Shown here: positions 26,823-44,532 of the stretch, one piece after another
Layout of the letters: every line of letters begins with the position of its first letter
Position numbering within the stretch: position 1 is the first letter of the stretch
Notes under the pieces: model-generated
What the model was told of the DNA's origin: nothing
The model's database searches: none
The model's input: only the letters and a program-made list of their open reading frames with translations
Made by a program: the position numbers and the translations under genes
From: a virus
Taxonomy: Duplodnaviria; Heunggongvirae; Uroviricota; Caudoviricetes
DNA length: 64,000 bases
Reading direction: 5' to 3' (one strand)
IMG/VR virus record: IMGVR_UViG_3300032167_000002
Location: 216,286-280,285 of that record

Positions 26823-26850
26823 TGACAAATAAGAATTTTTTTGGTATAAT
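26823..26850 (+). promoter_or_regulatory. Plus-strand consensus promoter TTGACA-N16-TATAAT at the junction region
   Basis: TTGACAAATAAGAATTTTTTTGGTATAAT. Confidence 0.5.
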
Positions 26851-26867
26851 ATTAAAAAAAACTAAAT

Positions 26868-27130
26868 TTCCCGATCGGGTTGATTTTTATAAAAAAATAT
26901 GTTATAATTATAATGGAAGAGAATAATAATAAGCCGATCGGCTTTATACAAATAGATCGGCCATATGCGGATTCCCGATCGGCCCTGCGGGGACTTGGTT
27001 TTCGGGAAAAATTGAGGCCATATAGAGGTCGCTAGAAGTAGCAGAAAATTTGCATATGGGGTGTACCGATCGGAAAATCGGGCCAGTACTGGCGTCCTCG
27101 GCCCGTCGAGTTTCGGGAATCCGAACGGAT
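26868..27130. repeat. Non-coding junction with at least 5 copies of the GC-rich palindromic motif CCGATCGG
   Basis: CCCGATCGGG, GCCGATCGGC, AGATCGGCC, CCCGATCGGCCC and ACCGATCGGAAAATCGGGCC in otherwise AT-rich sequence. Confidence 0.5.
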
Positions 27131-27236
27131 GTTCGCCCCGGCCGCATTTTGTGAAAAAATACTTGAAATCACTTGACAAATCGAAATTCGGGCCGGAAGC
27201 GCTAGTGTACGGCCCGCCAAAAAATGACCCCATGAC

Positions 27237-27408
27237 TCAATAATGAGCCATGGGGTTTGTTACTACATAGGGGTCATCCTCGTTGTAAGGGTCTTCGACG
27301 GGGTCGAAGAAGTCCCAACACTCGTCACCCTCTTCACACAGATTGCAACAGGCCACATCGTCCGTGGTTTCCTGTCCCACATGGGAGCAACGCCAACATC
27401 TACTCATA
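27237..27408 (-). CDS. Small Cys-rich acidic protein (about 56 aa)
   Basis: MSRCWRCSHVGQ...; its start overlaps the upstream gene's TAG stop (ATGAGTAG). Confidence 0.4.
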
Positions 27409-27570
27409 GTCCTCGTCCTCCTCTGCAGGTTCGGCATCCCAGTCATCTTCTTCACAGGGGGCGGGGAAAGGGCTATCGCTGGGGTAGTGGCAGGAAGGGT
27501 GGTCTTCCCCTTCATCTTGCCAGTAGTAGCCACAGTTGCTATCGGCACAGCCGAGATGCTTTTTAGCCAT
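27400..27570 (-). CDS. Small acidic Cys-containing protein (56 aa) that stops with TAG
   Basis: MAKKHLGCADSNCGYYW...EEDEDYE. Confidence 0.4.
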   Translation of the reverse strand: MAKKHLGCADSNCGYYWQDEGEDHPSCHYPSDSPFPAPCEEDDWDAEPAEEDEDYE

Positions 27571-27688
27571 TGTTCTTGTCCTCGCTTTCCTTAGGGTCTG
27601 CGGTCGGCTGTTCTTGCGTTCCGCACTGGTCGCACTTGGTTTCGTCAATGTCGGTTTTCCAGTAGTTAGGGCACTTCAAGCAGTTCAT
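27563..27688 (-). CDS. 41-aa zinc-ribbon peptide
   Basis: MNCLKCPNYW...CDQCG; preceded by a consensus promoter. Confidence 0.4.
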   Translation of the reverse strand: MNCLKCPNYWKTDIDETKCDQCGTQEQPTADPKESEDKNNG

Positions 27689-27712
27689 AATCTGCACCTC
27701 ACTTTCTGAATG

Positions 27713-27742
27713 TATTATAGCATACCTTGGGGGTTTTGTCAA
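27713..27742 (-). promoter_or_regulatory. Consensus sigma70 promoter (TTGACA-N17-TATAAT) embedded in the palindrome GGGGGTT...AACCCCC
   Basis: Minus strand reads GGGGGTTGACAAAACCCCCAAGGTATGCTATAAT. Confidence 0.6.
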
Positions 27743-27760
27743 CCCCCTTTTTCGTTTTTT

Positions 27761-28366
27761 TTAGAAAGGCAGTTCGTGGTTTTGAGCCGCCCATTCGCAC
27801 GCAATCGTGCTGTATTCCTCGCTGATTGCAGGAATGTCGATGAAAGAACGGCTTGCCATGTAGTCCGCCATGTGAACACATCTGTCTACGGAAGTAAAAG
27901 GTCTGTCCTCTCTGTCGGTAGACCACTGCCCCATGTGGCTTGCAACCGCATTTGTCAGCAAGAAATGGGGAGTAAATCCGTACTGTTCCTCGCACCAATG
28001 GGTGAAACTCTCGGCGGCGTTTCGTGCATGGTCTGCGTACTGGGACTTGTCAAAGTCCTTGATGCCGTACTTGTTCGTGTCGTGGATAAGGCAGGCGACA
28101 ATGACATAATCCTTGTACTCTGCTCTCATGTACGCATAGGAACTCATGCGGAGCAACTCTTCTGCAAACATCACAACTGCCTTGGTGTGGCGAATAGTAC
28201 CGCCGATGCCGTGGGCGAACTTCGGATGATACTTGCCGGAACTGGATGCGCCGTCCGTCCAAAAGTAGTCAGGTGTGGCTTCTTCCAGATAAGACTTGGT
28301 AGCCATGCGCAGGTCTTCATTTACGATGAGCGCCAACTCACGCTCGAAAAGTTTAATGTTTCTCAT
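27761..28366 (-). CDS. HD-domain phosphohydrolase
   Basis: Motifs GKYHPKFAHGIGGTIRH and ACLIHDTNKYG (H...HD); AAGGAG Shine-Dalgarno. Confidence 0.6.
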   Translation of the reverse strand: MRNIKLFERELALIVNEDLRMATKSYLEEATPDYFWTDGASSSGKYHPKFAHGIGGTIRHTKAVVMFAEELLRMSSYAYMRAEYKDYVIVACLIHDTNKYGIKDFDKSQYADHARNAAESFTHWCEEQYGFTPHFLLTNAVASHMGQWSTDREDRPFTSVDRCVHMADYMASRSFIDIPAISEEYSTIACEWAAQNHELPF

Positions 28367-28396
28367 GGGTATCAATCTCCTTCATTTGATGAACTT

Positions 28397-28425
28397 ATTA
28401 TAGCATACTTTGTGCCATTTGTCAA
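28397..28425 (-). promoter_or_regulatory. Consensus sigma70 promoter driving the HD hydrolase gene
   Basis: TTGACAAATGGCACAAAGTATGCTATAAT. Confidence 0.65.
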
Positions 28426-28438
28426 GCACTTTTTTTGG

Positions 28439-28532
28439 TGGAGATGGGGGGAATCGAACCCCCTTGCACACCCTCGGCAGGATGAAGGCTTAGACCAAAG
28501 CATCCTCTGACTTTCCTAGCCAGCCCATCCCC
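28439..28532 (-). tRNA. Type-II tRNA-like gene (94 nt) with a 16-nt anticodon loop containing UCUAA; amber-suppressor candidate, speculative
   Basis: Acceptor GGGGATG/CATCTCC with CCA, D-stem CTGG/TCAG, anticodon stem GGATG/CATCC enclosing CTTTGGTCTAAGCCTT, 16-nt variable arm, T-arm GGGGGTTCGATTCCCCC. It has its own promoter (TTGCAT-N16-TATAAT) at 28540-28585. Confidence 0.45.
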
Positions 28533-28704
28533 ATCGGACAATAGTATTATACCATAATTGCGGGACAATGCAAGTGGTAATAGTGCACAAAAATTCGATT
28601 TGAAAAAATGCCTGGGTTGTGCAAAATGCTAAATAACGCCCGCGACATTTGTCTGCGGGCGGCCGAAAATTATGTAAACCGCACAAAAAATTACACAAAA
28701 ACGC

Positions 28705-28732
28705 GAAAAACCGCCCATTTTAGGCGGTTTTT
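28705..28732. terminator. Bidirectional rho-independent terminator
   Basis: AAAAACCGCC-CATTTTA-GGCGGTTTTT. Confidence 0.6.
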
Positions 28733-28733
28733 C

Positions 28734-29102
28734 TCAACTTTTCGGCTTGCGTTTAGCGATTAGCGTCAATTCGTAGGCATCTTCACCAATTTTGAAGGCG
28801 ATTTGCCGTGTTTTGTTGGTGATTTCGACGGAATTGTAGCCATTTTCGGTCAAAAACTCCGCAATTTTAGCAATTACACCCTCTTTTGTGGGGTTTTCTG
28901 GTGCTTTTCGTGCGGTTTTGCCCTCTTTGGCGGTGCGTGTGCCTGCGTTGGCGTTCTTCATAGCCTGCTTGTGTTGCTCGTCGGTCAAGTCAAAATCGAC
29001 CTTTTCCCCTCGGTCTATCTTCTTGTCCTCGGCAAGTACGGCTTCGGCTTCCTCTCGGCTACAACGCAGATTTTTCATAATGCGGTCAACTTGCGTTTCC
29101 AT
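28734..29102 (-). CDS. Cassette gene A (122 aa), hypothetical; paralog of 32558..32911
   Basis: Shared N-terminus ...SREEA..L.EDK.IDRGEK. Confidence 0.55.
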   Translation of the reverse strand: METQVDRIMKNLRCSREEAEAVLAEDKKIDRGEKVDFDLTDEQHKQAMKNANAGTRTAKEGKTARKAPENPTKEGVIAKIAEFLTENGYNSVEITNKTRQIAFKIGEDAYELTLIAKRKPKS

Positions 29103-29200
29103 AGTGGTTGCCCCCTTTCATTACATAGTACAGCACACTTGGGGCAGGTTGTCAAGAGGGAGTTTTGAGGGGGCGATTGCCCCCTCGACCCTCGGCAGGG

Positions 29201-29575
29201 TTAGACAAGGGAGAAGTATGCCTTTCTCTTGTCCTCGGTACGCTTGACCTTGCCAGCCTCGACCAACTGGCGGAGCAGGGCGGACACCCTCTGATTGGTC
29301 AGGTCAGCACACGCAGGGATGGACTTGATGACCTCGGTAACGGTGTACAGACGGTTGGGTTCCATACCCTCGACGATGGCGGTGGCGATACCTGCGTTCT
29401 GCACCTGCTGTGCGGTGGGCTTCTTGTCAGCGGAGTTCTTCTTGGTCAGCAACTCGACCTCGTGGTCGATAAACTCGACCAGCATTGCGTTCTCCGCAAC
29501 GGCAGGGATGGCACGGAGCATAGCAAACTTCTGTGCCTTGGTCAGCTTGGGGGTAGAGGTAGTGTTAGTAGCCAT
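29201..29575 (-). CDS. Cassette gene B (124 aa), winged-helix DNA-binding protein; paralog of 33021..33404
   Basis: TNTTSTPKLTK...YTVTEVIKSIP..LTNQRVSALLRQLVEAGKV.RTEDKRKAYF. Confidence 0.6.
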   Translation of the reverse strand: MATNTTSTPKLTKAQKFAMLRAIPAVAENAMLVEFIDHEVELLTKKNSADKKPTAQQVQNAGIATAIVEGMEPNRLYTVTEVIKSIPACADLTNQRVSALLRQLVEAGKVKRTEDKRKAYFSLV

Positions 29576-29639
29576 AGTATCGACTTCCTTTCGGTTTTTA
29601 CGACTTGAACCTGTCGGTAATATTCACAAGAGGTTTCCC

Positions 29640-29900
29640 TCTTTGTGTTCTTATTATAGCACATTCAGTGCGGTTTGTCAAGAGGTTTTTTGAAGTTTTT
29701 TCAACTTTTTTTCAACCGCTTGGCTTGGGGTGTTCCCCTCATTGCTCTTACATTGTATCACATCTTGGGGCATTTGTCAAGAGGTTTTTCAACTTTTTTT
29801 TCGCTCGGCTCGCTCTGTCCTGCGTTGTTGCTCACCCTCATTGCTCCTTAATTGTACCACATCGCACCGCAAATTGCAAGTAGTAATTTGCACAAATAAC
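29640..29900 (-). promoter_or_regulatory. Tandem array of three sigma70-type promoters with A-tract UP-like elements upstream of cassette B
   Basis: Three TTGACA or TTGCAA -N17- TATAAT or TACAAT units, each 5'-flanked by GAAAAAAAGTTGAAAAAACC, with a CCTCTTGACA ... TGTCAAGAGG inverted pair. Confidence 0.6.
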
Positions 29901-29938
29901 GGGATTTTACAGAATGATTATTTGTGCAAAATTTCCTC

Positions 29939-29967
29939 TTGACAAATTGCTGGGGGTCTGTTATAAT
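29939..29967 (+). promoter_or_regulatory. Conserved plus-strand (antisense) promoter CTTGACAAATTGCTGGGGGTCTGTTATAAT, copy 1 of 3
   Basis: Perfect -35 and -10 with 17-bp spacer; convergent with minus gene 30040..30252. Confidence 0.55.
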
Positions 29968-30036
29968 GGAATTTCTGCCCGCGCACATACGTCCGCGGGC
30001 CGCCAAATCTTAATGGGAAAAGCGAGGGTTTCCCCT
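29960..30036 (-). terminator. Pair of GC-rich hairpin terminators after gene 30040..30252
   Basis: GCGAGGGG-AAA-CCCTCGC then TTTTCCC; GCCCGCGGACGTATGTGCGCGGGC. Confidence 0.5.
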
Positions 30037-30039
30037 CGC

Positions 30040-30252
30040 TCAAAATGTGTCGTATCCCATTGCTTCCGTTTGTGCGTCGGTGTACTCACCGAGATAGTCG
30101 TACCAGTCGGGAACATCGGAACACCCCATCACCAAGCCGGAATGTTCGCAAGCGATTTCTTCCCAAATGATTTCGTAAGCCTCTTCTACACTGTTGCACT
30201 GTACAAAGAAGAAACCACCATCGATGGTATCTTCAAATAAGAAATTCATCAT
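30040..30252 (-). CDS. Hypothetical acidic protein (about 70 aa); track ORF start trimmed
   Basis: The upstream residues in the ORF track are promoter-derived; AAAGGAAGTG then ATGATGAAT. Confidence 0.45.
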   Translation of the reverse strand: MMNFLFEDTIDGGFFFVQCNSVEEAYEIIWEEIACEHSGLVMGCSDVPDWYDYLGEYTDAQTEAMGYDTF

Positions 30253-30313
30253 TTCATTCACTTCCTTTCTGTGGTTATTATAGCACAGATTATTGAGTTT
30301 GTCAAGACCCTTT

Positions 30314-30786
30314 TTACAGGGTCTTGCTTTCACTCACAAAGTACTTGGCTTCGTACTGATTGATAATGTCACGGACTTTCGCACTCTCGGCTTGGGTCGC
30401 ACAGTAGAAGTTGAATAAGGTGTAGTTGCCGACACCCTCAATGTAGTTGTGGGGAATGTCTTTCAAATCGAAATGCACCGCACCTTGGTACTTGGCAGGA
30501 ACGGTTGCTTCCACTTTCCACAGTTTATCCTTTCGTGCCTTTTCCTCAATCAGTTTTACCACATAGACACCGACAAGGTTACACAAGGCAACAATACCTG
30601 CTTTGAGATAAAGGTCAAGTTCACACATCAAATAGACAGTGACGATAGTATACAGACCGTAGGCAACTGCATTGACAACTGCGGCGGTTGCCTTTCCGCA
30701 CTTGACAGTGGCGATAGATTTTACAGTTTGAATGATGACATTGGCGATGTTCAGTACAACGAACACTAAGAGCAGTTTTGTATTCA
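30314..30786 (-). CDS. Membrane protein (about 157 aa)
   Basis: Start MNTKLLLVFVV; several transmembrane helices. Confidence 0.5.
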
Positions 30787-30978
30787 TTCTATTTACCTCA
30801 CTTTCTGTTAGTATTATACCACAAATACGGGAAATGTCAAGTGTCAATTTACACAAAAGATTTACCCAAAAAATTGTTGAAACTGGTTATTTTGCCGAAA
30901 AACCGGCCCGCGCGTACGTGAAGGGCCGGCCAAAAAATGTCCCCCACCCGCGAACACGGATGGGGGTTGTGGGGGATG

Positions 30979-31404
30979 TTACTCCCCCTTGCCAATGCGG
31001 AACTCACCCTCGGGAACACTCGGCTCATCAATCACAATCAACACAGGGTCGTGAGCGATTGCGGTTCTCGGTTTGGCAATTCGCACAAGGAACAGCTTGT
31101 TGCAAAATGCTCTTGCCTTTTGGTCGTAGCAGATGTAGAGGTTGCCAATCTTGAAATACTTCTCAATCTTGACCCTATCCCAAGCCTCTTGGGTTACTGG
31201 CTTGACTGCGTTGCGGATGAACTTCCAAATCAGCATAAACGGATACCAGATGATGATGAAGATACCCGTCAGCACCACCCACGGCAGAGAGATGGCATAG
31301 TCCAAAATGTTCCACAGAGTGTTGTTGCAGGTTTCCTCTTTCCAAGTGTAGAGGGCACCCATTACCATCCAAGTAATGAGTACAGAGAGCAGGATTTCTA
31401 ACAT
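30979..31404 (-). CDS. Membrane protein (141 aa)
   Basis: N-terminal transmembrane helices. Confidence 0.5.
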   Translation of the reverse strand: MLEILLSVLITWMVMGALYTWKEETCNNTLWNILDYAISLPWVVLTGIFIIIWYPFMLIWKFIRNAVKPVTQEAWDRVKIEKYFKIGNLYICYDQKARAFCNKLFLVRIAKPRTAIAHDPVLIVIDEPSVPEGEFRIGKGE

Positions 31405-31461
31405 AGTATCATTTCCTTTCGTCTTTTGGTACTTTGATTATAGCACACTTTGGGGGATTTG

Positions 31462-31905
31462 TCAAGCGTTTTCTGCGAGAAAACGCTTGAACTTTTCCAC
31501 ATTGAAACGGAAGATGTTACGCTCGCAGGCGTGTTCCACAGGCTCTTCGTGGTAAGGCAGAGTGTAGATAGAACCCCATCTGTCTACAAAGTCCGGGCGG
31601 TCAAACAGAGTGGCGATGGCTCTGCGGTCAAACAGACCCATTTCCTCTTCGTTGTACTTGCGACCCTTGGAGTCAACCCACACACTCTCTTCCTTGGTGT
31701 AGGTGGCAGGCTCGGTGCGAGCTACAACGATGAAGCCATACTCGCGGCAGGTCTGCAGGCTCAGCGGATGTTCCTTGCAACTCTTACGCAGTTCGTCAAA
31801 CTGCTTCTTGGTGAACTCGGCAGGCAGGCTCTGCAGAAACTGCTCGGTTACCTTTGCCAGTGCGAACATGGTGGGGACAGTGTGAGAAAAAGTGTTACGA
31901 TACAT
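31462..31905 (-). CDS. Hypothetical protein (147 aa) with a conserved 5' leader
   Basis: ORF; its leader is shared with the exonuclease gene. Confidence 0.5.
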   Translation of the reverse strand: MYRNTFSHTVPTMFALAKVTEQFLQSLPAEFTKKQFDELRKSCKEHPLSLQTCREYGFIVVARTEPATYTKEESVWVDSKGRKYNEEEMGLFDRRAIATLFDRPDFVDRWGSIYTLPYHEEPVEHACERNIFRFNVEKFKRFLAENA

Positions 31906-32005
31906 AGTAGTTACCTCATTTCATTTTTGTATTGGGGGTTTGCCATCGCTCCCCCAACCGTGATTACATTATAGCATACTTTGTGGGGTTTGTCAACCCC
32001 TTTTT

Positions 32006-32221
32006 TTAGATTTTGAAAACTATTTTTTCAAAAGCAGGTTTGTAGGTTTCGTTCCACAGCTGTTCATACTTGGCACAGTTGTTGGGGTCGTAGGCACAAG
32101 CCATCAGTAACATACCAAAAGCTTGGTCGAAGTAGGTGCGGGCGGTGGGGAAGTGGTTCTCACCGAACTTTTTGCAGTTATGCAGGTGCAGGTCGAGTTG
32201 GTTGATTAAGCAGTTCATCAT
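32006..32221 (-). CDS. Hypothetical protein (71 aa)
   Basis: ORF with upstream promoter. Confidence 0.45.
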   Translation of the reverse strand: MMNCLINQLDLHLHNCKKFGENHFPTARTYFDQAFGMLLMACAYDPNNCAKYEQLWNETYKPAFEKIVFKI

Positions 32222-32398
32222 AGGTCATTACCTCCTTGGTTTGTATCTAAATTATAGCACACCTTTCGGGATTTGTCAAGGGGTTTTGTAAAACTTTTTT
32301 TCTGAATAAAAATTTGTGTGGGATGTATAATAATGCAAATTCCGGGCGCCACGCACGTCAGCGCCCGGCCAAATTTTTCGTCAAAATGCACAAAACCG

Positions 32399-32436
32399 CT
32401 CCCCAGTGCCGTGGTCAAACACTGGGGAGTTTTTTC
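32399..32436 (+). terminator. Rho-independent terminator on the plus strand
   Basis: CTCCCCAGTG...CACTGGGGAG then T6. Confidence 0.55.
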
Positions 32437-32557
32437 GGAGTTTGATTCGGTTGGCTAGGCTCTACGACCACAGTAAAACCCCCTTGCCGCAGTTGGGCAG
32501 TCTTCTTTCTGCCCCGCTGGGATGGGGGTCGATAGGCTCGACCCCACTCAGAGAGCC

Positions 32558-32911
32558 TTAGGAACGGGGGCACGCAAGGGTGACCTTGTACTTCGTGCCG
32601 TTGTGGGTGAATAGGAACTCTCGCTCGGGGTTGGTGATGTTGAAATCAGCCACACCCAGTTCCGCAAGTCCTGCCATCATAGCGGAGCAGATTTCAGCCT
32701 TTTCGGGTTTCGGCTTTCGCTCTCTCTTGGTGGGAGTGTCGGACTTCTTGCGGTCGGCTTGTCTTGCCTTTTTCGCACCCTTTTCCAGTTCGGGGTCAAG
32801 TTCGTACAACTTTTCGCCCCTGTCGATTCGCTTATCTTCTTCGATGAGGTCGATTGCCTCTTCTCGGCTGATGTTCAGCGACTTCATCAGCTTTTGGATT
32901 TTCTCTTCCAT
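32558..32911 (-). CDS. Cassette gene A' (117 aa)
   Basis: Paralog of 28734..29102. Confidence 0.55.
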   Translation of the reverse strand: MEEKIQKLMKSLNISREEAIDLIEEDKRIDRGEKLYELDPELEKGAKKARQADRKKSDTPTKRERKPKPEKAEICSAMMAGLAELGVADFNITNPEREFLFTHNGTKYKVTLACPRS

Positions 32912-33020
32912 CGGGGTTCACTTCCTTTCTGTACTTACAGTATAGCACAGTTTACCCCGATTGTCAAGCACTTTTTTCGGGGTGGGTGGGGGAGATTTCT
33001 CTCCCCCTTGGGCGGTCGGC

Positions 33021-33404
33021 TTAGCCTACCTTGGTAAAGTAGGCTTTCCGCTTGTCCTCGGTACGCACCACCGCACCGCTCTCCACCATCTGACGCATCA
33101 GAGCGGAAACACGCTGGTTGGTGAGGTCGGCACACTCGGGAACGGACTTGATGATCTCGGTGACGGTGTACGCCTTACCGCTCTCCATGCCGTTCAGAAT
33201 GGCGGTCTTGATGCCCTCGTTGGCAGTCTGCTGAGCGGTGGGCTTCTTCTCAGCGGAGTTCTTCTTGTTGAGCAGTTCCACCTCATGGGCGATGAACTCG
33301 CTCAGCATGGGATTGGACTTGACCTCGGGCAGTTCGGCGATGATAGCGAACTTCTGAGTCTTGGTCAGCTTGGGGGTAGAGGTAGTGTTAGCCATAGTTA
33401 TCAA
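33021..33404 (-). CDS. Cassette gene B' (127 aa), winged-helix protein
   Basis: Paralog of 29201..29575; conserved leader GACAGGTTCAAGTC...AAACCGAAAGGAA. Confidence 0.6.
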   Translation of the reverse strand: MITMANTTSTPKLTKTQKFAIIAELPEVKSNPMLSEFIAHEVELLNKKNSAEKKPTAQQTANEGIKTAILNGMESGKAYTVTEIIKSVPECADLTNQRVSALMRQMVESGAVVRTEDKRKAYFTKVG

Positions 33405-33439
33405 TTCCTTTCGGTTTTAGGGACTTGAACCTGTCCTTG

Positions 33440-33960
33440 ATTACATTTAGATTATACCACAAGTGGTTGAATTTGTCAAGAGGTTTTCTGAAAAAATTCC
33501 GGACTTTTTTCATTATACAACAGACCTCATGCCGTCATTGGGATTGTATTCTGTCCTTACTTGCCCTGAGTCTACCGCACCATTCTGCCGTTCGTTCTAC
33601 CCTTTGGCGAACATACTTGGTCAATGGGTCTTGGTTTCAATCCGCAGTGTTTCCGTTTCCACCAATCCATAGGGGAGTATCTCGATGTGTTCCCCTCTTG
33701 ACACACTCATTATACCACACTTTGTGGGGTTTGTCAAGAGGTTTTTTCAACTTTTTTTCGTTTCGGTCTGTCCATCAACTTGACCCGACCTACCGAGTGG
33801 AGTTGCTGTCCCCTCTTGACATACTCATTATAGCACATCTTGTGCCGTTTGTCAAGAGGTTTTTTCAACTTTTTTTCGCCATTCTGTGGCTCAACCTCAC
33901 GGCTGTGGGGAGTTGCTGTCCCCTCTTGACAATAGTATTCTATCACATCTTGAGCCAAAA
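33440..33960 (-). promoter_or_regulatory. Tandem array of at least four sigma70 promoters (about 115-bp units) upstream of cassette B'
   Basis: Repeated units ...GTTGCTGTCCCCTCTTGACA...TATAGCACA...TTTGTCAAGAGGTTTTTTCAACTTTTTTTCG. Confidence 0.6.
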
Positions 33961-34024
33961 TGCAAGTGGTAATGTTGCACAATTATGGGAGATTTTGCGC
34001 TGATTTATTTGTGCGGTTTGCCTA

Positions 34025-34054
34025 TTGACAAATTGCTGGGGTCTGTGGTATAAT
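34025..34054 (+). promoter_or_regulatory. Conserved plus-strand antisense promoter, copy 2
   Basis: ATTGACAAATTGCTGGGGTCTGTGGTATAAT. Confidence 0.5.
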
Positions 34055-34227
34055 AAAATTTCGGCTCGCGCGCCCGTGAGCGAGTCGCCGAAAAAGCCGA
34101 CAATCCGCCACCCCATTTTGGAGTGGCGGACCGCCAGAAAGGAGATTATGAATTGTCTAATCCGCAAGCACCACCAAGCGGATTTTCAAGTGGGATGGGG
34201 TCGATTGGCTCGACCCCTCAAGAGCCA

Positions 34228-34719
34228 TTAGGAGGGCAGATCCTTGGGAATGGGGAGTAAGCAAGGGGACACATCCAAGTCCCTGCCGGGCAGGGGGATA
34301 ACCTCAACCCCCAGCTCGTCAGCCATCTGCTTGGCAAGAGCAACCATTACCTCACCAATGTAGGGGATGCGTTCGGTGTAGGGTTCGACCTTGCGACCGC
34401 AGAACTCACAGACCCCATTAACCACATCACCACCGCACATTCCGCAGGTGGGCAGGTTGCTGTCCTCGTCCTCTTCTTCCTCGGCACCTGCCTGCTCGAC
34501 CACAAAGCCGAGCATCATCAGTGCCATTTCATCGGTACACCACGGCTCTTCACCATTGTGGTACAGAACCTCGCCCGTGTAGCCGTTGCAAATGCAGATG
34601 TGAGCGTCCTCGAAGTCGCACTCAAACACGGCTCGGATTGCCTCACGCACATCATTCGTTTCGTAGGTGAAGCGGTTGTCCTCGGTAGTGATGATGACAG
34701 AGTAGTTGAAGTTTTTCAT
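34228..34719 (-). CDS. Acidic protein with zinc ribbon (about 163 aa)
   Basis: Real start MKNFNYSV after AAAGGAA; GAEEEEDEDSNLPTCGMCGG...CEFCGRK. Confidence 0.5.
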   Translation of the reverse strand: MKNFNYSVIITTEDNRFTYETNDVREAIRAVFECDFEDAHICICNGYTGEVLYHNGEEPWCTDEMALMMLGFVVEQAGAEEEEDEDSNLPTCGMCGGDVVNGVCEFCGRKVEPYTERIPYIGEVMVALAKQMADELGVEVIPLPGRDLDVSPCLLPIPKDLPS

Positions 34720-34816
34720 AGTTATCAGTTCCTTTCCTTTGATGAACTCATTATAGCACACTTTTGGCGGTTTGTCAAGAGGTTTTTTCAACTTTTTTTT
34801 GGGGGTTGGGCGGTTG

Positions 34817-35479
34817 TTACACCGCCCACTTGGGGAATACCTTGTTTCGCTCGGTGCAATCCCAACAATGCACATTCTTTGTATAGTGCTTGTGGGTGCG
34901 GACACACCGCACAAAGATTGCCATTTCAATCAGTGCGTCAGCCAGTGCGGTGTGTTCCTCGATGTACTCACCATTTCCGCTGATGTATGCGTACACACTT
35001 TCGGCAGAGGTGGCACAAGTCTTTCCACCCTTGGACTTGTAGCCATTCTCTCGACAGAACTTGGCATAGCCTTTCTGATGAGTAATGGTCTGCAATGCCA
35101 TCAACCAAAGGTCGATGAACTGGAACTCGTCAGCCAACTCACGGCAACAGGTCTTGCAGAGGTCAAAAGCGGAATTGTAAGCACAGATGTACTTGACATT
35201 ATAAAAACGCAGGAGATTTCGCACGATGTTGAGTGCTTCGGCTTCGGTGGCAACTGCGGAGATTTCGCCCCTTGCCAGTCGCTCGGCATAGATGTGGAAA
35301 TTCTTCTTTGCGTAGTCGTCGTTCTTGATTTCGTCATAGAACTCCATCACCAACAGAGAAGTGGTCGCACAGATGTTGCCCTCTCTATCGTGGATAACCA
35401 CACCCACATTGTAAAATCCCTTGGGGTGGTCGATACCGCCAACTGTTTCGGTATCAAGGGTTGCGTACATTGTTTTCAT
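34817..35479 (-). CDS. DnaQ-like DEDD 3'-5' exonuclease
   Basis: Exo I YATLDTETVGG, Exo II ICAYNSAFDL, Exo III HTALADAL. Confidence 0.65.
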   Translation of the reverse strand: MKTMYATLDTETVGGIDHPKGFYNVGVVIHDREGNICATTSLLVMEFYDEIKNDDYAKKNFHIYAERLARGEISAVATEAEALNIVRNLLRFYNVKYICAYNSAFDLCKTCCRELADEFQFIDLWLMALQTITHQKGYAKFCRENGYKSKGGKTCATSAESVYAYISGNGEYIEEHTALADALIEMAIFVRCVRTHKHYTKNVHCWDCTERNKVFPKWAV

Positions 35480-35901
35480 TGGTCTTTACCTCGTTTCATT
35501 AGTGTGTTGTGGGTTTGCCGTCGCTCCCTCAACTGTGAGTACATTGTATCATAGATTTAACGGTTTGTCAAGCACTTTTTTTCAATTTCTTCCGCACTTG
35601 CGTAAAAAGTTTCGCTTGAGTTCCACACCCTCATAATGTATTTACCGCTGGTATCATCGTAACTGGACACCACGCACACACCGTAAGGGGCAATGCGGAA
35701 CTTAGTTCCTCGTTTCAGCATTCTTCTCGCCTCACTTTCTGATAGTATTCTATCACACATTGCGGGAAATGTCAATTGTGAATATTGCACAAAGTTTTGC
35801 CTAAAATAATTGCCTGGGTTGTTTATTATGCCAAATTCCGAGCGCGTGGGCCGTGCGCGCTCGGCTCAAAAGTCAATAGGCAAAATGCACAAAAAAAATT
35901 C

Positions 35902-36360
35902 TCAGATTTCTCTGAGAATTTCCAAGATGTTTTCAACTCCATAGGCTCTGCCCGTCCAGTTGTTTCTGTTGCGTTCTTCATCGTCAAACAGAATGTCAAG
36001 GGGGTTGTGGCAGAAATTTTCTTTCGGAGTGCCATAGGGAACGATTGTGATTTCGTCCCAGTTGACGCTCGGCAGGTGCTTTGCAAGCCATTCCAGTTTT
36101 GCATTGGTAACGGCTTCATCATACTCGGCAGTGCTTTCCTTGCTGAGCCAGCTGATTACCGCAATGCGGTAGCCGTTTCTCTGGAGAGTATTCAGCTTGC
36201 GGGCGAGGTCGCACAAGCGGAGCAGAGGCTTTGCCGTTGCGTAGGGAGTGGGGTCGTAGGCTCGGAGCAGGGGCAACCAGTTGGGGTTTGCGTACAGGTC
36301 AGCGATTGTTCCGTCCATATCGAAGTTGATGGTGATGTTCATAGTCTTCATAGTTTTCAT
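35902..36360 (-). CDS. HAD-superfamily 5'(3')-deoxyribonucleotidase-like protein
   Basis: Motif I FDMDGTIADL. Confidence 0.55.
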   Translation of the reverse strand: MKTMKTMNITINFDMDGTIADLYANPNWLPLLRAYDPTPYATAKPLLRLCDLARKLNTLQRNGYRIAVISWLSKESTAEYDEAVTNAKLEWLAKHLPSVNWDEITIVPYGTPKENFCHNPLDILFDDEERNRNNWTGRAYGVENILEILREI

Positions 36361-36749
36361 TTCCTTTCCTTTTTGTACCTTAATTATAGCACATCATTTA
36401 CTATTTGTCAAGGGGTTTTTAGAAATAAAATCCGCCAATTATTGCAACTGGTACAAGCACCGCAAGGGTGTAGCCAACGAAGCCAAGCAGAATGTTGTGC
36501 TTGACATTATTCTCTTGATTATAGCTAATGCATCCTAAGCCAAGAATGGCACTAATTACTGCGAAAATCCACATAGTTTGCATCTCCTTTGTTCTTTGTG
36601 TCTTAATTATAACACGCATTATGGGATTTGTCAATAATCAATTTGCACAAATTATTCCCCAAAATAAATCCTGGGGTTGGTTATTCTGACGAAAATCGGC
36701 GCGCCAGGACCGATAGCGCGCCGCCGAATTTTGAGCTGAAAATTGCGCC

Positions 36750-36989
36750 CTAATGATAGGGCGCTTCGATTTCCAGTATGTCGGTTTGAATGAGTGCAAA
36801 GCGTGCCGAAAACCGACACCCGCACCCGCAAATGTATTCGTCTGTTTTGTCTTTGTGGTTGCTTGTTGAGTCCAGGTATACCAGTTCCGCTTGGGCGCTA
36901 CTTCCGCAGTTAGGGCAACGAATGCGCGGGTCTCTCAACTGCGCTTGCCACTCTTGGGCGATTTGAGCCGCTGTTTTCATTGTTCTCAC
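36750..36989 (-). CDS. Zinc-ribbon protein (79 aa) that stops with TAG
   Basis: RCPNCGS...CGCGCRF. Confidence 0.45.
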   Translation of the reverse strand: MRTMKTAAQIAQEWQAQLRDPRIRCPNCGSSAQAELVYLDSTSNHKDKTDEYICGCGCRFSARFALIQTDILEIEAPYH

Positions 36990-37038
36990 CTCTTGGCATT
37001 ATTATAGCAGATTGTGGGGGTTTTGTCAACCCCCATTT

Positions 37039-37446
37039 TCAGATAATCCGCACAAACTTGATGATGGGAACGAGGATTTCTTCGTCCTTGTAAGGAGAGG
37101 AAACGCCCCTCTTCCAACCAACCCACCGCTGAATGGTAACCTTTTCGACTTCATCGGTTTTCTGCCGTTCGACCACACCAGCCCACACCAGAGCCTTGAG
37201 TGCGGCGGCGACTTTCTGCACCGAGTAGTCGTCAACTTTGCCGTTGCGTGCTTGGATTTCCTTTACACGCAGAGGCACACCGAGGGGCATTGTTGCGAGA
37301 ATGTCGGAGCGCAGTTCGTAGTCTCTGTCGATGCGACCTCTTGTGTTGAAGCCGAGGGAAACCAGTGCGGAGAGTTCACGCACCTGCGAGGGAGAGAGTT
37401 CCACACCTGCGGAAACATTGTAGAGAATAGTTTGTAAGCTGTCCAT
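37039..37446 (-). CDS. Hypothetical protein, possible winged-helix (start trimmed)
   Basis: Start MDSLQTILYN after the promoter-derived region. Confidence 0.4.
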   Translation of the reverse strand: MDSLQTILYNVSAGVELSPSQVRELSALVSLGFNTRGRIDRDYELRSDILATMPLGVPLRVKEIQARNGKVDDYSVQKVAAALKALVWAGVVERQKTDEVEKVTIQRWVGWKRGVSSPYKDEEILVPIIKFVRII

Positions 37447-37515
37447 AGTATTCAGTTCCTTTCCTTTTGGTACTGTTATTGTATCATAGATTTGGGAGTT
37501 TGTCAAGCCTTATTT

Positions 37516-38133
37516 TTAGAAAATCGTTGCCAAAATTTCAGCCTTGCGGTTGAGTTCTGCCACATCTTCTGCGGTGATTTCTCGCAGTTCGGGGAAGCGG
37601 TCATTGCCCAAGAGGGTCAGACCTTTTTTCTCGAAGTGGTCACGGATAACATCTTCCATAGCGAGTGCGTGATTTTTATTTTTGCAGGGATACCAACCAA
37701 GCACCACACCGCTGTCAGCTTCGTTTGCGTAGTCAACTGTGAAATGCTGATTTAGTCTGCGGATTGCATCGTCAGCCTTTCCGCATTTAATCCACAGGTG
37801 CTTGCCTTTCTTGTTGAAATGCTGAACGATGTAAGCACCGCAACCCTCTGCCGGAACATTAAAAATCAGATTGTGATTGACAAGAGTGGCAGGATTTGGG
37901 ATGCGACCTCTGCCCAACTTTTTCAGCTCTCGCTTGATGGGGTCAAGGATGAAGTATTTTGCCCAGGCGGTGCAGGCATTGAAAATGTCCTCGACTACTT
38001 TCCACCAACGACCTTGCCAATTCTTAGTGGCTGACTGGTATCTCTTGTATGCACCAACAAGGTCATTTCCATTGCGGTAGTCCTGCATTGTGAGGGTGGG
38101 GGTGGGGTGAATTGCGTGTACCATTTCAATCAT
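37516..38133 (-). CDS. Hypothetical protein with a GIY-YIG-like segment
   Basis: GAYIVQHFNKKGKHLWIKCGKADDAIRRLNQH. Confidence 0.3.
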   Translation of the reverse strand: MIEMVHAIHPTPTLTMQDYRNGNDLVGAYKRYQSATKNWQGRWWKVVEDIFNACTAWAKYFILDPIKRELKKLGRGRIPNPATLVNHNLIFNVPAEGCGAYIVQHFNKKGKHLWIKCGKADDAIRRLNQHFTVDYANEADSGVVLGWYPCKNKNHALAMEDVIRDHFEKKGLTLLGNDRFPELREITAEDVAELNRKAEILATIF

Positions 38134-38199
38134 TTCCTTTCGGCTTCCTTTGATGCTCTAATTATAGCACAACTTGATTTGTTTGTCAAGCATTTTTTT

Positions 38200-38760
38200 T
38201 GCCAAGTCTTATATTTTTCCGAGAAGATACTTGGCGAGAACCTCGTGGTTTTCCGGGGTAGTTTTCCTTCTCCCGCAGTAGGGGTGGTGGCTTTTGTATC
38301 CTGCGTATCCCCAACATTTTTTCAGCCTGTGGGGTCTGGTTCACATTTGTATACCGCAAACAGGAACACCTTGCGGTCGGGTCATCGGGTAATGGTCTTA
38401 CATACTCTCGTGGGAATCCGCCATCTTCGCGGTTGCCTTACCCTCGCCTTTTGTACCCTTATTGTATCACACTCTAAGGGATTTGTCAAGGGGTTTTCCC
38501 AACTTTTTCTCACCTTTTCGCGAGGGAGCTACTGGGGAGGATACTCGATTGGGGTTTCCCTCCCCCTTGACACCCTTATTGTATCACAACTTGGGTGATT
38601 TGTCAAGAGGGAAATTGAAATTTTTTCAACTTTTTTCGCTCTGTTATTGTCGGTACCGCTTCTCCTGAATCGGGCGCTACATTCGCGCCACAGTTTGCGT
38701 TCCCTCTTGACAATGATAGTATACCACAGACCGCACACAAAGTCAACTGGTAATGTTGCA
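38200..38760 (-). promoter_or_regulatory. Third tandem promoter array (at least four TTGACA-N17-TATAAT or TACAAT units)
   Basis: Repeats of ATTGTATCACA...TTTGTCAAG(A/G)GG with CCCTCTTGACA inverted partners. Confidence 0.55.
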
Positions 38761-38805
38761 CAAATTCGGGATTTTGTGGGATGATTATTTTGTTGAAATT
38801 GCCTA

Positions 38806-38834
38806 TTGACAAATTGCTGGGGCTGTGGTATAAT
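38806..38834 (+). promoter_or_regulatory. Conserved plus-strand antisense promoter, copy 3
   Basis: ATTGACAAATTGCTGGGGCTGTGGTATAAT. Confidence 0.5.
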
Positions 38835-38909
38835 GGAAATTCGCGCCCATGACAATCGTGGGCGCGCGGCCGAAAATTCAATAGAAAAAGCGAGGGTTTG
38901 ACCCCTCGC

Positions 38910-39146
38910 TCAGTTGAAGATTTTGATTTCTGCGTGACACGGCTCAACGATTTCGGTCGGCTCAATGCCGTAGATACTGCCCTCGGACAGGCTGACCGCA
39001 TTTACAAAGCCGTCGCACTCATCGCAACCGCACTCTTCAATTTTCAGCATGAAGCAGAGGTAAGTAGGAGACCAAAAGGTCTGCCCCTTACTTATCTCGC
39101 TGAAGCGGATACCGCGCTCTTGGCGCTGGTCGAGTATCTTCACCAT
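38910..39146 (-). CDS. Hypothetical protein (78 aa)
   Basis: ORF. Confidence 0.45.
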   Translation of the reverse strand: MVKILDQRQERGIRFSEISKGQTFWSPTYLCFMLKIEECGCDECDGFVNAVSLSEGSIYGIEPTEIVEPCHAEIKIFN

Positions 39147-39436
39147 TGTTCTTCCTCCTTCTTCTGTTTCTTCAGCAGGAGAACTACCCGTTCAAGTGCC
39201 ATCCGCACTTCATCACGGCAGGGTGCGTCTGCGTCGAGATAGCAGACCACATTCTCCAAAAGGGAGTTAGCCTCACCAACGAGGTCAACCCCGTACTTCT
39301 TGAACACAACCGCATCCCTTTCGGTATAAATCTCAAGGGGGTCGCCCTCTTTGATTTTCAGAGTTCTGCGGATTTCCTTGGGGATAACCACTCTGCCGAG
39401 GTCATCCACTCTACGAATGATACCAGTTGCTTTCAT
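39140..39436 (-). CDS. AbrB/MazE (SpoVT-AbrB) family DNA-binding protein
   Basis: GIIRRVDDLGRVVIPKEIRRTLKIKEGD. Confidence 0.7.
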   Translation of the reverse strand: MKATGIIRRVDDLGRVVIPKEIRRTLKIKEGDPLEIYTERDAVVFKKYGVDLVGEANSLLENVVCYLDADAPCRDEVRMALERVVLLLKKQKKEEEQW

Positions 39437-39492
39437 CTTCATCATTTCCTTTCGTTTTTGTACCTTGATTATAGCATAGAATTGGGGATTTG

Positions 39493-39771
39493 TCAATCCC
39501 CAATTTCACATTTTTCTACGAAATCGCTTGGCACGATGTAGTCCATTAAATCAATTTCGCCTGCGGTGGTTTTGGTCAATGGCAGTTTAGAGTTGGGGAA
39601 CTCTTCGAAAATTACATCGAGATACATCTTGACCTGTCCGCACAGATACTTGAAGCGGTCGAGCCGTTCTGTCATTCGGTCTTCTGTGGCGGTTAGCAGA
39701 CCTGCCAACTGGGCTTGGCTCATTTCTCCCAGTTTATCCAGTAGGTCTGCATAGCGGACTTCATTCATCAT
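39493..39771 (-). CDS. Hypothetical protein (92 aa)
   Basis: ATGA overlap with the next gene. Confidence 0.45.
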   Translation of the reverse strand: MMNEVRYADLLDKLGEMSQAQLAGLLTATEDRMTERLDRFKYLCGQVKMYLDVIFEEFPNSKLPLTKTTAGEIDLMDYIVPSDFVEKCEIGD

Positions 39772-39920
39772 TCTTTATCACCTCTCTTGAACTTTTGGCG
39801 GTTGTACTTCTTACCGCTTTCGACTTTGCTACCTCTGCGAGTGAAGATAAGCCATTGCTGTAATTCTTCACCAGTTTTCTTGAAGGCTCTGCGGTCGACT
39901 TTCTTATTCTTCTTAGCCAT
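39768..39920 (-). CDS. Small basic protein (50 aa)
   Basis: MAKKNKKVDRRAFKK... Confidence 0.35.
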   Translation of the reverse strand: MAKKNKKVDRRAFKKTGEELQQWLIFTRRGSKVESGKKYNRQKFKRGDKE

Positions 39921-40240
39921 TTTCAATCACTCCTTGTTCTTTGTACTTGTATTATACCACAACATTTACTATTTGTCAAGGACTTTTTTAGTCCCAAACA
40001 AAAGTATTTATCAGCTTGCCTTCGCCATCAAATTCCAGTTCCAGTTCTGCGTTGGGGTCAAGCAGAGTATCGACAGGGATGTGAATGCTTTTGGATGTGG
40101 GGAAATCGTAGATTTCTACATCTGCTCTTACTCTTGCCAGTGCTTTCTTAATGATTTCAAATTCAGTCATTGCTCTGTACCTCTTTCTTTTTTGTACCTT
40201 AATTATAACATGGGTTGGGGGTTTTGTCAACCCCCATTTT

Positions 40241-40549
40241 TTACATTTTCAGAAGAAATGCGTATTTCTTTTCGTTGCGGACAACAACCTTTTTCAGACC
40301 AGTAGGAACATTGCCGTTGAAGATTGCGGTCAGCTTCTTGATGGTAGCCATGTAGCCAGTTACCACTGTTCCATCATCTGCCCCCCGCACAAGAATAATG
40401 CCAGTGTCGGTGATGGTGTAGATGTGGCTGGGAGACCGAGGGTCGGGGATTTCGTAGGCAAACTCATTGTAGCCGATGTGGGTCATGCAAGCAACCAGTC
40501 GGTCCAGTCGCTCAACTCTTGCGTGGTAGCTCATTTTCATAGTAGTCAT
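40241..40549 (-). CDS. Hypothetical protein (102 aa)
   Basis: ORF. Confidence 0.45.
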   Translation of the reverse strand: MTTMKMSYHARVERLDRLVACMTHIGYNEFAYEIPDPRSPSHIYTITDTGIILVRGADDGTVVTGYMATIKKLTAIFNGNVPTGLKKVVVRNEKKYAFLLKM

Positions 40550-40826
40550 TTTATTTACCCCCTTATTTCATCCACCATCTTTTGGAGATGGTCACACAGC
40601 AGTTGTTCTTTACTTCGACTTTATACTTCTCTTTGCGGAAGTGGTTTGCTACATACTCGGCATTGTCATCATTGTCCGTGCAGTAGATTGCGGTGCGTTG
40701 CTCACGCAGTTGCTTGTAAATGTTCTGTAAAGTCTTGTACATGGTATTCATTTCCTTTCCTTTTTGTACCTTAATTGTATCACAGATGTTTTATTTTGTC
40801 AAGAGTTCTTTTTGGAAACTGGCAAT

Positions 40827-41027
40827 TTATTTTGCCAGTTTCCAGAGGATGTAACTCTCACCCTGTACGAAGTTATTCACTCCGATACCAGTGATGACAC
40901 CCGCCTTTTTCAACTCATCAAGCAGGTTGATGAGGGAGAAGCGATTGACCTGCAGGTACATCGCAATCTCACGCAGGCGAAGTCCGTTGGGATGGTGGGC
41001 GAGGAGTTCTCTAATCTGTTCTTTCAT
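40827..41027 (-). CDS. Winged-helix transcription regulator-like protein (start trimmed)
   Basis: GLRLREIAMYLQVNRFSLINLLDELKKAGVI. Confidence 0.5.
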   Translation of the reverse strand: MKEQIRELLAHHPNGLRLREIAMYLQVNRFSLINLLDELKKAGVITGIGVNNFVQGESYILWKLAK

Positions 41028-41187
41028 GGTAATCAATTCCTTTCTTGTTTGTATCTGTATTATAGCACAGGTTTCGGGATTTGTCAATACCTTTTTATAA
41101 ATTATTTTGCAGAATTTTATTTTTCTGTAGGTTTTATTTAGCGCAAATAACGCGCGCCAGATCCGTGGGCGCGCGTAGCAAAAAGGC

Positions 41188-41496
41188 TTAGCAGTACGCT
41201 AAGCCCATAGTCTTCCAGCAAAGGACGCTTATCTGATTGTGTGCTCTACCAATGGACATTGCCTCTCTCTTGGTGTTTACTCGGTAGCTGTGGTCGATGT
41301 AGTACACGCCATCACTGTACCATACACCGCAGTTGCCCTTCATCATACGCACTGCCTTGATGCACTCTTCTGCTGTGTGTGCTTCTACACCATAGTCAGC
41401 GACCTGCCAGCCGCTCTTGTATGTGATGACTTTGCCTGCCTTAATGGTCAAGCCTTCATTGTTAGCGAGCTTCTTGATTGTTCTTACATTGATCAT
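41188..41496 (-). CDS. Hypothetical protein (102 aa)
   Basis: ORF. Confidence 0.45.
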   Translation of the reverse strand: MINVRTIKKLANNEGLTIKAGKVITYKSGWQVADYGVEAHTAEECIKAVRMMKGNCGVWYSDGVYYIDHSYRVNTKREAMSIGRAHNQISVLCWKTMGLAYC

Positions 41497-41576
41497 TGTG
41501 TCTTACCTCTCTCTCTTTGTGTCTTTATTATAACACACAAAGATTTATTTGTCAAGCATTTTTTTTATTTATTTAC

Positions 41577-41699
41577 TAAAATAATTGTAGTAATTGTGGC
41601 AATAATAAAAAGCGCTACCAGACCAATCAAAGTCCAGCCAAGCCAAGCGGGACAAGTAGTTCCTTCGTAAACAAGTTCATTCATCCAGTAAGCATTCAT
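41577..41699 (-). CDS. 40-aa membrane peptide
   Basis: MNAYWMNELVYEGTTCPAWLGWTLIGLVALFIIATITTIILVNK. Confidence 0.35.
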
Positions 41700-44497: not shown

Positions 44498-44532
44498 AGT
44501 CTATACTCTATTCCTTTCTTTTTTCTTATAAT

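Follow-up and report, generated by a model that had tools for sequence, protein, structure and literature searches.

The 64,000-nt stretch of tailed-phage DNA analyzed here (the window; positions 216,286 to 280,285 of the IMG/VR record IMGVR_UViG_3300032167_000002, Caudoviricetes) contains three plus-strand promoters that, by their sequence, belong to a distinct promoter class placed at the 3' boundaries of early operons and pointing against those operons. They lie in a 15-kb early region (27.7-42.3 kb) of short minus-strand genes, each behind consensus promoters. The sequence class, the orientation of its members, the position and the covariation of a GC hairpin downstream of them, the convergent geometry, and a recombination junction at the same place are direct observations. 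The reading that we favor, tentatively and with somewhat less than even confidence, is that these promoters fire a hairpin-capped antisense RNA into the upstream early operon and thereby limit or insulate that operon by collision and pairing.

On the plus strand, the 18-mer CTTGACAAATTGCTGGGG occurs at 29938 without a mismatch and at 34024 and 38805 with one mismatch each. Shuffled sequence gave a mean of 0.10 matches per shuffle, and none of the 100 shuffles reached three. A consensus scan of 27-43 kb detected 26 perfect promoters (12/12 TTGACA-16/18-TATAAT plus TG), 23 on the minus strand and three on the plus strand; the latter are exactly these sites, with no others. The scanner flagged a TG one base 5' of the -10 hexamer in all three copies, within TGTTATAAT in copy 1 and TGGTATAAT in copies 2 and 3. 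On the basis of their hexamers, spacing, and TG, the three sites are classed as housekeeping (sigma-70/sigma-A) extended -10 promoters. The initial annotation had described three near-identical consensus promoters directed against the flanking early genes, the first standing back-to-back with a minus-strand promoter across a 13-bp perfect inverted repeat, and each of these elements is present. The convergent minus-strand genes end at 30040, 34228, and 38910, which are 73, 174, and 76 nt 3' of the respective plus-strand -10 hexamers. In all three copies, the promoter is convergent with the 3' end of a protein-coding gene and its predicted transcript overlaps that end, a geometry of the OOP type. 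A plus-strand gene behind the promoters was considered and rejected: just one frame, of 26 codons, follows copy 2 (GGAG 3 nt from ATG), and in close strains every called gene is on the early-gene strand.

Alignment showed that the conserved 30-mers are the best-kept part of an intergenic cassette of ~330 bp, present in three copies in the window (Table 1). The pairwise identity among the copies is 84-97% in the core and 42-69% in the flanks. Read along the plus strand, the cassette consists of two strong tandem minus-strand promoters, a weaker minus-strand promoter, the inverted repeat, the plus-strand promoter, a GC hairpin (hairpin 1), an A-rich linker, and a second hairpin (hairpin 2). It is always located, in the sense direction, just 3' of an operon terminator and 5' of tandem sense promoters. 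In the sense direction, copies 1 and 2 are each followed by a two-gene operon; the two operons are paralogous, and the first gene of each encodes a 124-residue protein.

Table 1. Coordinates of the cassette elements, related hairpin units, and neighboring features in the window.
Feature	Position	Strand	Remarks
Antisense promoter, copy 1	29939-29967	+	TTGACA-17-TATAAT, 12/12; spacer AATTGCTGGGGGTCTGT
Antisense promoter, copy 2	34025-34054	+	TTGACA-18-TATAAT, 12/12
Antisense promoter, copy 3	38806-38834	+	TTGACA-17-TATAAT, 12/12
Hairpin 1, copy 1	29977-30000	+	GCCCGCG / CGCGGGC; starts 9 nt after -10; predicted 5'-terminal
Hairpin 1, copy 2	34063-34086	+	GGCTCGC / GCGAGTC, one G-U pair on +; starts 8 nt after -10
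Hairpin 1, copy 3	38842-38866	+	CGCGCCCAUGA / UCGUGGGCGCG; starts 7 nt after -10
Hairpin 2, copy 1	30021-30040	-	Terminator of convergent gene 30040-30252; UUUUCCCAUU follows on -, no U-run on +
Hairpin 2, copy 2	34097-34137	-	Terminator downstream of gene 34228-34719
Hairpin 2, copy 3	38888-38911	-	Terminator overlapping stop codon of gene 38910-39146
Back-to-back sense promoter, copy 1	29879-29851	-	TTGCAA-17-TACAAT, 9/12 with TG; own TTTGTGCAA 8 nt upstream of -35
Back-to-back sense promoter, copy 2	33937-33965	-	TTGCAT-17-TGnTAGAAT; read by eye, under scanner threshold
Back-to-back sense promoter, copy 3	38718-38746	-	TTGACT-17-TATACT; TTTGTGCAA at 38756-38764 on -
Inverted repeat, copy 1, left arm	29887-29899		TTTGCACAAATAA; upstream TTTGTGCAA element of - promoter
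Inverted repeat, copy 1, right arm	29918-29930		TTATTTGTGCAAA, exact complement of left arm; upstream TTTGTGCAA of + promoter, at about -52 to -44
Inverted repeat, copy 2 (imperfect)	33975-34014		Left arm TTGCACAA retained; right arm ATTTGTGC
Inverted repeat, copy 3	38756-38797		Left arm TTGCACAAA intact; right arm ATTTTGTTGAA degenerate
Further hairpin unit	32326-32377	+	TATAAT, AATGCAAATTC, hairpin CGGGCGCC/GGCGCCCG; poor -35; 50 bits, best covariance match in window
Decayed unit	35833-35873	+	Class spacer and hairpin kept (AAAATAATTGCCTGGGTTGTTTATTATGCCAAATTC), -35 lost; far side facing TTTGTGCA-N8-TTGACT
Decayed unit, early/middle boundary	27174-27225	+	TTGACAAAT fused to CGAAATTC and hairpin; no -10
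Terminator-like hairpins in sense promoters	27729-27747, 31985-32000, 37015-37035, 39479-39506, 40216-40236	+	No + genes there
Gene of 124-residue protein	29201-29575	-	Predicted C-terminal winged-helix domain; first gene downstream of copy 1 cassette
Gene of paralogous protein	33021-33395		72% identical to 124-residue protein; after copy 2

An exact 17-mer scan of IMG/VR retrieved seven related contigs with the same architecture, and the same 17-mer recurs in phages whose neighboring protein is just 54-70% identical to that of the window. Using the family of the 124-residue protein as bait, we then collected 58 loci of up to 20 kb each and searched them on both strands for promoters with 11 or more of the 12 consensus positions matched, which gave 1387 sense and 193 antisense promoters after deduplication. 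A GC hairpin within 60 nt was found at 158 of the 193 antisense promoters, compared to 176 of the 1387 sense promoters. The sequence TTGTGCA is located just upstream of the -35 hexamer in 47% of the antisense but 7% of the sense promoters. When antisense promoters with a hairpin (n=158) were compared with sense promoters without one (n=1211), the spacer motif TTGACAAA(W0-3)TGC was found in 44% against 2%, and the initial sequence nGnAWWT in 49% against 0%. The antisense spacer is rich in G at -21 to -18, and 71% have G at -13. The layout of the class is TTTGTGCAA at about -52 to -44, the TGC/G-rich spacer, TGGTATAAT, GGAAATTC, and then the GC hairpin, and these features persist across genomes whose neighboring protein is 34-70% identical to that of the window. 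The earlier proposal that conservation extends beyond the hexamers into the spacer is therefore borne out, since the spacer is specific to the class in the related loci. A promoter of this class together with its hairpin is hereafter called a unit; about 2-7 units per 20 kb occur in dozens of uncultured gut phage genomes, and the relatives in IMG/VR are mostly 120-240 kb in size. An exact-motif scan of bacterial genomes gave eight matches, seven in Clostridia-class bins of metagenome-assembled genomes (Clostridia, Acutalibacteraceae, Lachnospiraceae, and Clostridium) and one in a Treponema bin. These matches weakly hint at a Clostridia host and added no functional context.

Hairpin 1 is the second constant of the class. 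It begins at about +1 to +3 of the predicted plus-strand transcript and is not terminator-like on either strand. Among 103 unique units, the first paired base is 7-8 nt after the -10 hexamer in 67 and 5-9 nt after it in 85. Because sigma-A promoters typically initiate about 7 nt after the -10 hexamer, the 5' end of the predicted RNA would coincide with the foot of the hairpin. When nine units were used to build a covariance model, the search with it returned 117 matches from 40 sources, 114 of them antisense (108 of 111 in the fetched loci, and six of six on the plus strand in the window). In the alignment, which was fitted to the model and thus favors pairing, 94.9% of the cells were paired compared to 71.6% in shuffles, and 151 cells had changes on both sides compared to 44.7 in shuffles; such double-side changes were seen in all eight pairs. 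None of 500 shuffles reached the observed values, and slid controls fell to 27-45% paired. The raw stems agree with the model, having 866 Watson-Crick pairs and 15 internal mismatches. In the close strains, the promoter is invariant and hairpin 1 carries a compensatory change. These sequence comparisons indicate that hairpin 1 is under selection, and a covarying GC hairpin at a set distance from the -10 hexamer makes the functional antisense RNA suggested by the initial annotation plausible. The hairpin-1 loops in the loci L012-L069 share in many cases the loose motif WGGRCCGTG, with CG in 83 of 103, which hints at sequence-specific recognition or loop-loop contacts besides the stem. In a comparison of the window with Rfam 15, just tRNAs passed the gathering score, no match at E <= 5 overlapped the units, and neither tRNA nor transfer-messenger RNA (tmRNA) was found at them. 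The shape of hairpin 1 and its tail had also suggested a mimic of clustered regularly interspaced short palindromic repeats; this candidate was dropped, since the stem sequence varies from copy to copy, even inside a single genome.

The antisense promoters had further been said to run into GC hairpin terminators. On the plus strand, two GC hairpins do follow each promoter; just the second of them is a terminator, and it is the terminator of the minus-strand gene. Hairpin 2 has its T-run on the minus strand and overlaps or follows the stop codon of the convergent gene, and on the plus strand the U-run is absent in copies 1 and 2. Among 51 scored hairpins of the relatives, 29 are sense-only terminators, with an A-run before and no T-run after on the antisense strand. 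Antisense polymerases should therefore continue into the operon, because hairpin 2 terminates the sense strand only in the window and in most relatives. After hairpin 1, a complete facing promoter takes the place of the terminator in 23 of 103 units, and a facing -35 with the element TGCACAAA does so in 10 more. In several sense promoters, the loop of GGGGG-TTTTGTCAA-CCCCC contains the -35 hexamer, with a T-run on the plus strand, so that the same DNA is a promoter in one direction and terminator-like in the other. Such terminator-like signals on a strand free of genes fit, indirectly, real antisense transcription that needs containment. Two more plus-strand terminators (42338-42372 and 42541-42567) lie between the antisense promoters and the late genes.

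The inverted repeat can be explained by the same architecture. The element TTTGTGCAA has six exact occurrences in the window, all inside the early region, and five of them are 8-9 nt upstream of a -35 hexamer: that of the plus-strand promoter of copy 1 and those of the minus-strand promoters at 29879, 35775, 36634, and 38746. In copy 1, the 13-bp inverted repeat is thus a pair of upstream elements, each belonging to one of two divergent promoters of this class. In the relatives, 81 of 158 units carry TTGCACAAA and TTTGTGCAA as an inverted pair, and the spacings peak at 23 bp (n=23) and 33 bp (n=27), one helical turn apart. This phasing fits binding on one face of the DNA and suggests a shared site to which a regulator or the alpha subunits of the polymerase could bind. 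The 124-residue protein shows sub-threshold Pfam and PDB sequence matches to BlaI/MecI, MarR, TrmB, and Hop2, and the closest PDB folds to its AlphaFold model (predicted local distance difference test score, 81) are mostly winged-helix DNA binders (best E, 2.8e-3), weakly suggesting that it is a DNA-binding winged-helix protein. Of 145 winged-helix genes, 93 are preceded by a unit at a distance of no more than 900 bp. The presence of the inverted repeat makes a unit no more likely to lie beside the winged-helix gene in these loci (35 of 70 units with the repeat, compared to 39 of 80 without it; odds ratio 1.05, p = 1), and the co-occurrence of operator repeat and regulator gene expected for an autoregulated winged-helix repressor was not found. 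The neighboring protein is left as a candidate binder of the repeat, for which we make no claim.

The mechanism that we tentatively favor would proceed as follows. The polymerase carrying the host housekeeping sigma factor would initiate about 7 nt after the -10 hexamer, and a GC hairpin of very high stability (roughly -18 kcal/mol) would form the start of the RNA and, at the extreme 5' end, may shield it from 5'-end-dependent decay. The transcript would cross the A-rich linker into the terminator hairpin and the 3' end of the upstream early operon, and the antisense polymerases would stop at the plus-strand terminators built into some sense promoters. Acting in cis, head-on collision, promoter interference, and antisense pairing with the 3' end of the mRNA would limit the upstream operon, and the next operon with its tandem promoters would be insulated from read-through.

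Several points weigh against this mechanism. The start site, the length and stability of the RNA, its timing, and its effect on the early genes are all inferred, and a perfect promoter opposing the phage's own early operons would be costly, with a benefit that is unexplained. In roughly one-quarter to one-third of the relatives (sequences read by eye), hairpin 2 is bidirectional, which would give an RNA of only ~80 nt. Hairpin 1 is equally stable on both strands (49 versus 49, Wilcoxon p 0.77), and its internal mismatches, six G-T and six A-C, have no wobble bias toward the antisense RNA; given this symmetry, the covariation proves a selected hairpin and not whether the RNA of either strand or the DNA was selected. 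The main counterpoint is that the hairpin and its AAATTC flank are preserved in three further units of the window whose promoters are weak or lost. The survival of the hairpin implies that its role may not need the antisense promoter.

This counterpoint keeps alive a second explanation, which we regard as rather unlikely: the cassette would be a boundary element that stops sense read-through between early operons, and the antisense RNA would be a by-product. Hairpin 1 would serve as a back-up terminator with a U-rich tail formed by the complement of GGAAATTC and TATAAT, and the polymerase, whether it stays at the opposing promoter or fires from it, would be a roadblock. Consistent with this, an operon terminator always comes just before the unit in the sense direction and tandem sense promoters after it, the hairpin is as stable in the sense RNA, and the units with decayed promoters retain the hairpin and a GAATTT tail. 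The tail GAAUUUCC AUUAUA is, however, a poor U-tract, and the terminator scan called hairpin 1 at no copy; its loops, at 7-11 nt, are longer than is usual in intrinsic terminators. A terminator would also have no use for the tight spacing of 7-8 nt or for the class-specific -35, spacer, and upstream element.

The cassette is, as judged from copy 1, a recombination junction at which strains swap genes. In four close strains (L070-L073), a different gene is located upstream of the copy 1 cassette (70, 76, 148, and 76 residues), and the homology to the window starts exactly at hairpin 2. In the alignment of these strains with 29560-30080 of the window, the leaders of ~200 bp between the tandem sense promoters are 100% identical, compared to about 90% for the adjacent coding DNA, indicating either a recent exchange or a strong constraint on short leader transcripts. 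It is conceivable, although distinctly unlikely as the whole explanation, that the cassette is a mobile element resembling the promoter-early stem-loops (PeSLs), in which case the identity of the copies would come from recombination and gene conversion, and the spacer and the antisense RNA would have no specific function. The repeated unit of ~330 bp, the gene replacement in the four strains, and the identical leaders, which resemble a recent exchange, agree with this idea, and PeSLs have been described as compound elements of promoter and terminator that are conserved and bring about exchange of this kind (PMC4122927). Recombination accounts, however, only for the similarity within a genome and between close genomes. 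It leaves unexplained the class features across 34-60% protein identity, the 114 of 117 antisense matches, and the set hairpin distance, and it is compatible with our favored reading and no true alternative to it.

We also give little credence to a short stable noncoding RNA of about 75-90 nt, composed of the 5' hairpin, the A-rich linker, and hairpin 2, that would act as a regulator or decoy in trans or as a replication primer or R-loop, and not through convergent transcription. In its favor, the fold predicted for the two hairpins gave z-scores of -3.3 to -5.6, hairpin 2 ends a median of about 80 nt after the -10 hexamer, the loops share a loose motif, and several copies per genome have very strong promoters. 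Against this, the stems differ in each copy, the linker is merely A-rich, no conserved seed is visible, and Rfam gave no match; hairpin 2 mostly lacks a U-run on the antisense strand, and in 23 of 103 units a facing promoter takes the place of the terminator after the hairpin.

The proposal of a late-expression switch, in which a late factor bound to the spacer or palindrome would activate the promoters, with the early genes then silenced by the antisense RNA, is quite improbable: the class-specific spacer, the upstream inverted repeat, the orientation against the early genes, and the direction shared with the plus-strand late genes fit it, but 12/12 host consensus promoters with an extended -10 need no activator and should, being of the perfect host sigma-A type, be active on DNA entry, no late-type promoter feature is present, nothing ties them to the late genes, from which plus-strand terminators separate them, and a repressor could equally make them immediate-early only. 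The related candidate of late promoters, or of Q-type read-through, serving the late genes was rejected on account of the terminators at 42338-42372 and 42541-42567 and the minus-strand gene block of 42.6-44.5 kb in between; no promoter-proximal pause element was recognized.

The surroundings of the early region give some information on this large gut phage. A megablast search with 4.8 kb and a blastn search with the cassette found no nucleotide match among 50,697 phage records. One late protein is distantly similar to proteins of phAss-1 and of large Bacillus siphoviruses. The phage phAss-1, labeled 'code 15 clade' in GenBank, is a human-gut phage that recodes TAG, and its description does not mention promoters or antisense transcription (PMC10607447). 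Low-GC late genes occupy the plus strand from about 44.5 kb. If TAG is read through, the long stop-to-stop frames on the plus strand of 44500-64000 grow from 3462 to 5282 codons, nine of the 15 long late frames carry 1-11 in-frame TAGs, and the minus strand of the early region (27000-42600) barely changes. The late genes thus appear to read TAG as a sense codon, which fits the similarity to phAss-1. A tRNA array on the minus strand (1-6321) contains 17-18 genes, one of which (4196-4269) could not be assigned by ARAGORN (two-base anticodon call); weak extra Rfam tRNA matches are at 4115-4182 and 1-55. Given the TAG recoding, one tRNA of the array may be a suppressor.

Other segments of the minus strand also drew attention. 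A second uniform promoter class, TTGATTTTTATAAAAAAATATGATATAAT followed by ATATATGTAAG, is present in 15 copies (2272-26807) and is confined to the minus-strand gene block of 2-27 kb; with its distinct -35 and AT-rich spacer, it is probably a middle class. At the early/middle boundary (26850-27150), there is a cluster of CCGATCGG-type palindromes, three exact and two one base off, and also a structured-looking segment. This segment includes GGCCCGATTTTCCGATCGGTA (27064-27084), near-identical versions of which follow a promoter with a G-rich spacer in many relatives; an RNA gene, an origin, and a packaging signal are all conceivable identities. A tRNA-like or tmRNA-like element within the early region (28436-28532) matches just the ends of the Rfam tmRNA model (38.9 bits, E 1e-12; gathering score, 47). 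Downstream of the tandem promoters of the third cassette, ~270 nt (38190-38460) have no convincing reading frame and are followed by a further promoter and a T5orf172-like gene (37516-38133); the segment may be a noncoding RNA or a decayed gene. Between the early and late regions, a low-GC minus-strand gene block (42580-44500) has its own promoter at about 44530-44565, and the frame 42801-42998 in it runs on past a TAG, as read by eye.

A more far-reaching interpretation, which we consider doubtful, is that the units form a dedicated antisense system across a large clade of ~200-kb TAG-recoding gut phages and gate the time at which each early operon is expressed. A specialized class of host-type promoters, marked by an upstream operator and a spacer signature of its own, would direct RNAs with a 5' hairpin cap at the ends of early operons or at a facing promoter. 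Early sub-classes would then be timed by programmed polymerase collision and not by new sigma factors, and the semi-conserved loops might nucleate sense-antisense kissing. Should the units restrain or time early operons, they would illustrate how the early program is subdivided in a phage dependent on the host polymerase. Known antisense promoters of phage early regions are usually single cases, and here there is one recognizable, recurrent unit. Its signature allows antisense control points and operon boundaries to be annotated without a cultured host, and the cassettes mark the sites at which early "host-takeover" genes are exchanged between strains.

Among the closest known systems is the OOP RNA of phage lambda, which is made from a constitutive host-type promoter convergent to the 3' end of an early gene. 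OOP is one discrete species of 77 nt that ends at a terminator of its own and has a single target. Both OOP and sar of phage P22 resemble the present units in the host-type convergent promoter and in an RNA complementary to the 3' end of the mRNA and the intergenic region. The units differ from OOP in that there are several per genome, the upstream genes are unrelated (one pair compared, no similarity), a terminator of their own is usually absent, and a 5'-terminal hairpin and a class-specific promoter architecture are present. The pR and pL promoters of coliphage 186 are strong and face each other, with transcriptional interference between them, as do the promoters across a single hairpin in 23 of 103 related units. 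Unlike them, the opposing promoters in the window are 0.2-0.9 kb away across a gene and a terminator, and no lysis/lysogeny decision is involved. Stem-loops that stabilize protein-coding mRNAs from the 5' end are known in E. coli ompA, in the B. subtilis ermC and aprE leaders, and in SP82 early RNA. Hairpin 1 is likewise predicted to be a stable stem-loop a few nucleotides from the 5' end (7-8 nt from the -10 hexamer), but no plus-strand gene follows it. Late promoters of the phi29 type have no -35 and need an activator that binds inverted repeats between divergent promoters; the plus-strand promoters described here have a perfect -35, although an inverted repeat is present.

PeSLs of T4-type phages are repeated composite cassettes at gene-exchange junctions (PMC4122927, PMC2839356). 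The present cassettes are likewise repeated, conserved composites of an early promoter and a stem-loop in the intergenic regions of a plastic early region rich in promoter repeats, and copy 1 is a junction carrying different genes in close genomes. They differ from PeSLs in the phage group and host, in the conserved promoter being antisense to the flanking genes, in the hairpin lying at the start of that promoter's own transcript, and in the persistence of the class features across very divergent genomes. The PeSL promoter is reportedly co-oriented with the flanking genes and drives the next gene (Arbiol et al. in 2010), an arrangement found here in the tandem sense promoters of the cassette and not in the conserved antisense promoter. 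Further precedents are the antisense promoter P001 in the early region of LUZ19 and other phiKMV-like phages and the antisense RNAs of PAK_P3, for which a block on transcription into early genes has been proposed (PMC10914365). Those promoters, too, are conserved in sequence and position among related virulent phages; they are single sites for a phage RNA polymerase, whereas the present ones are of the host sigma-A type, occur in several copies, and are coupled to an upstream repeat and a 5' hairpin. Promoters of this antisense kind are thus already known from phage early regions, and what is new is the architecture of this unit.

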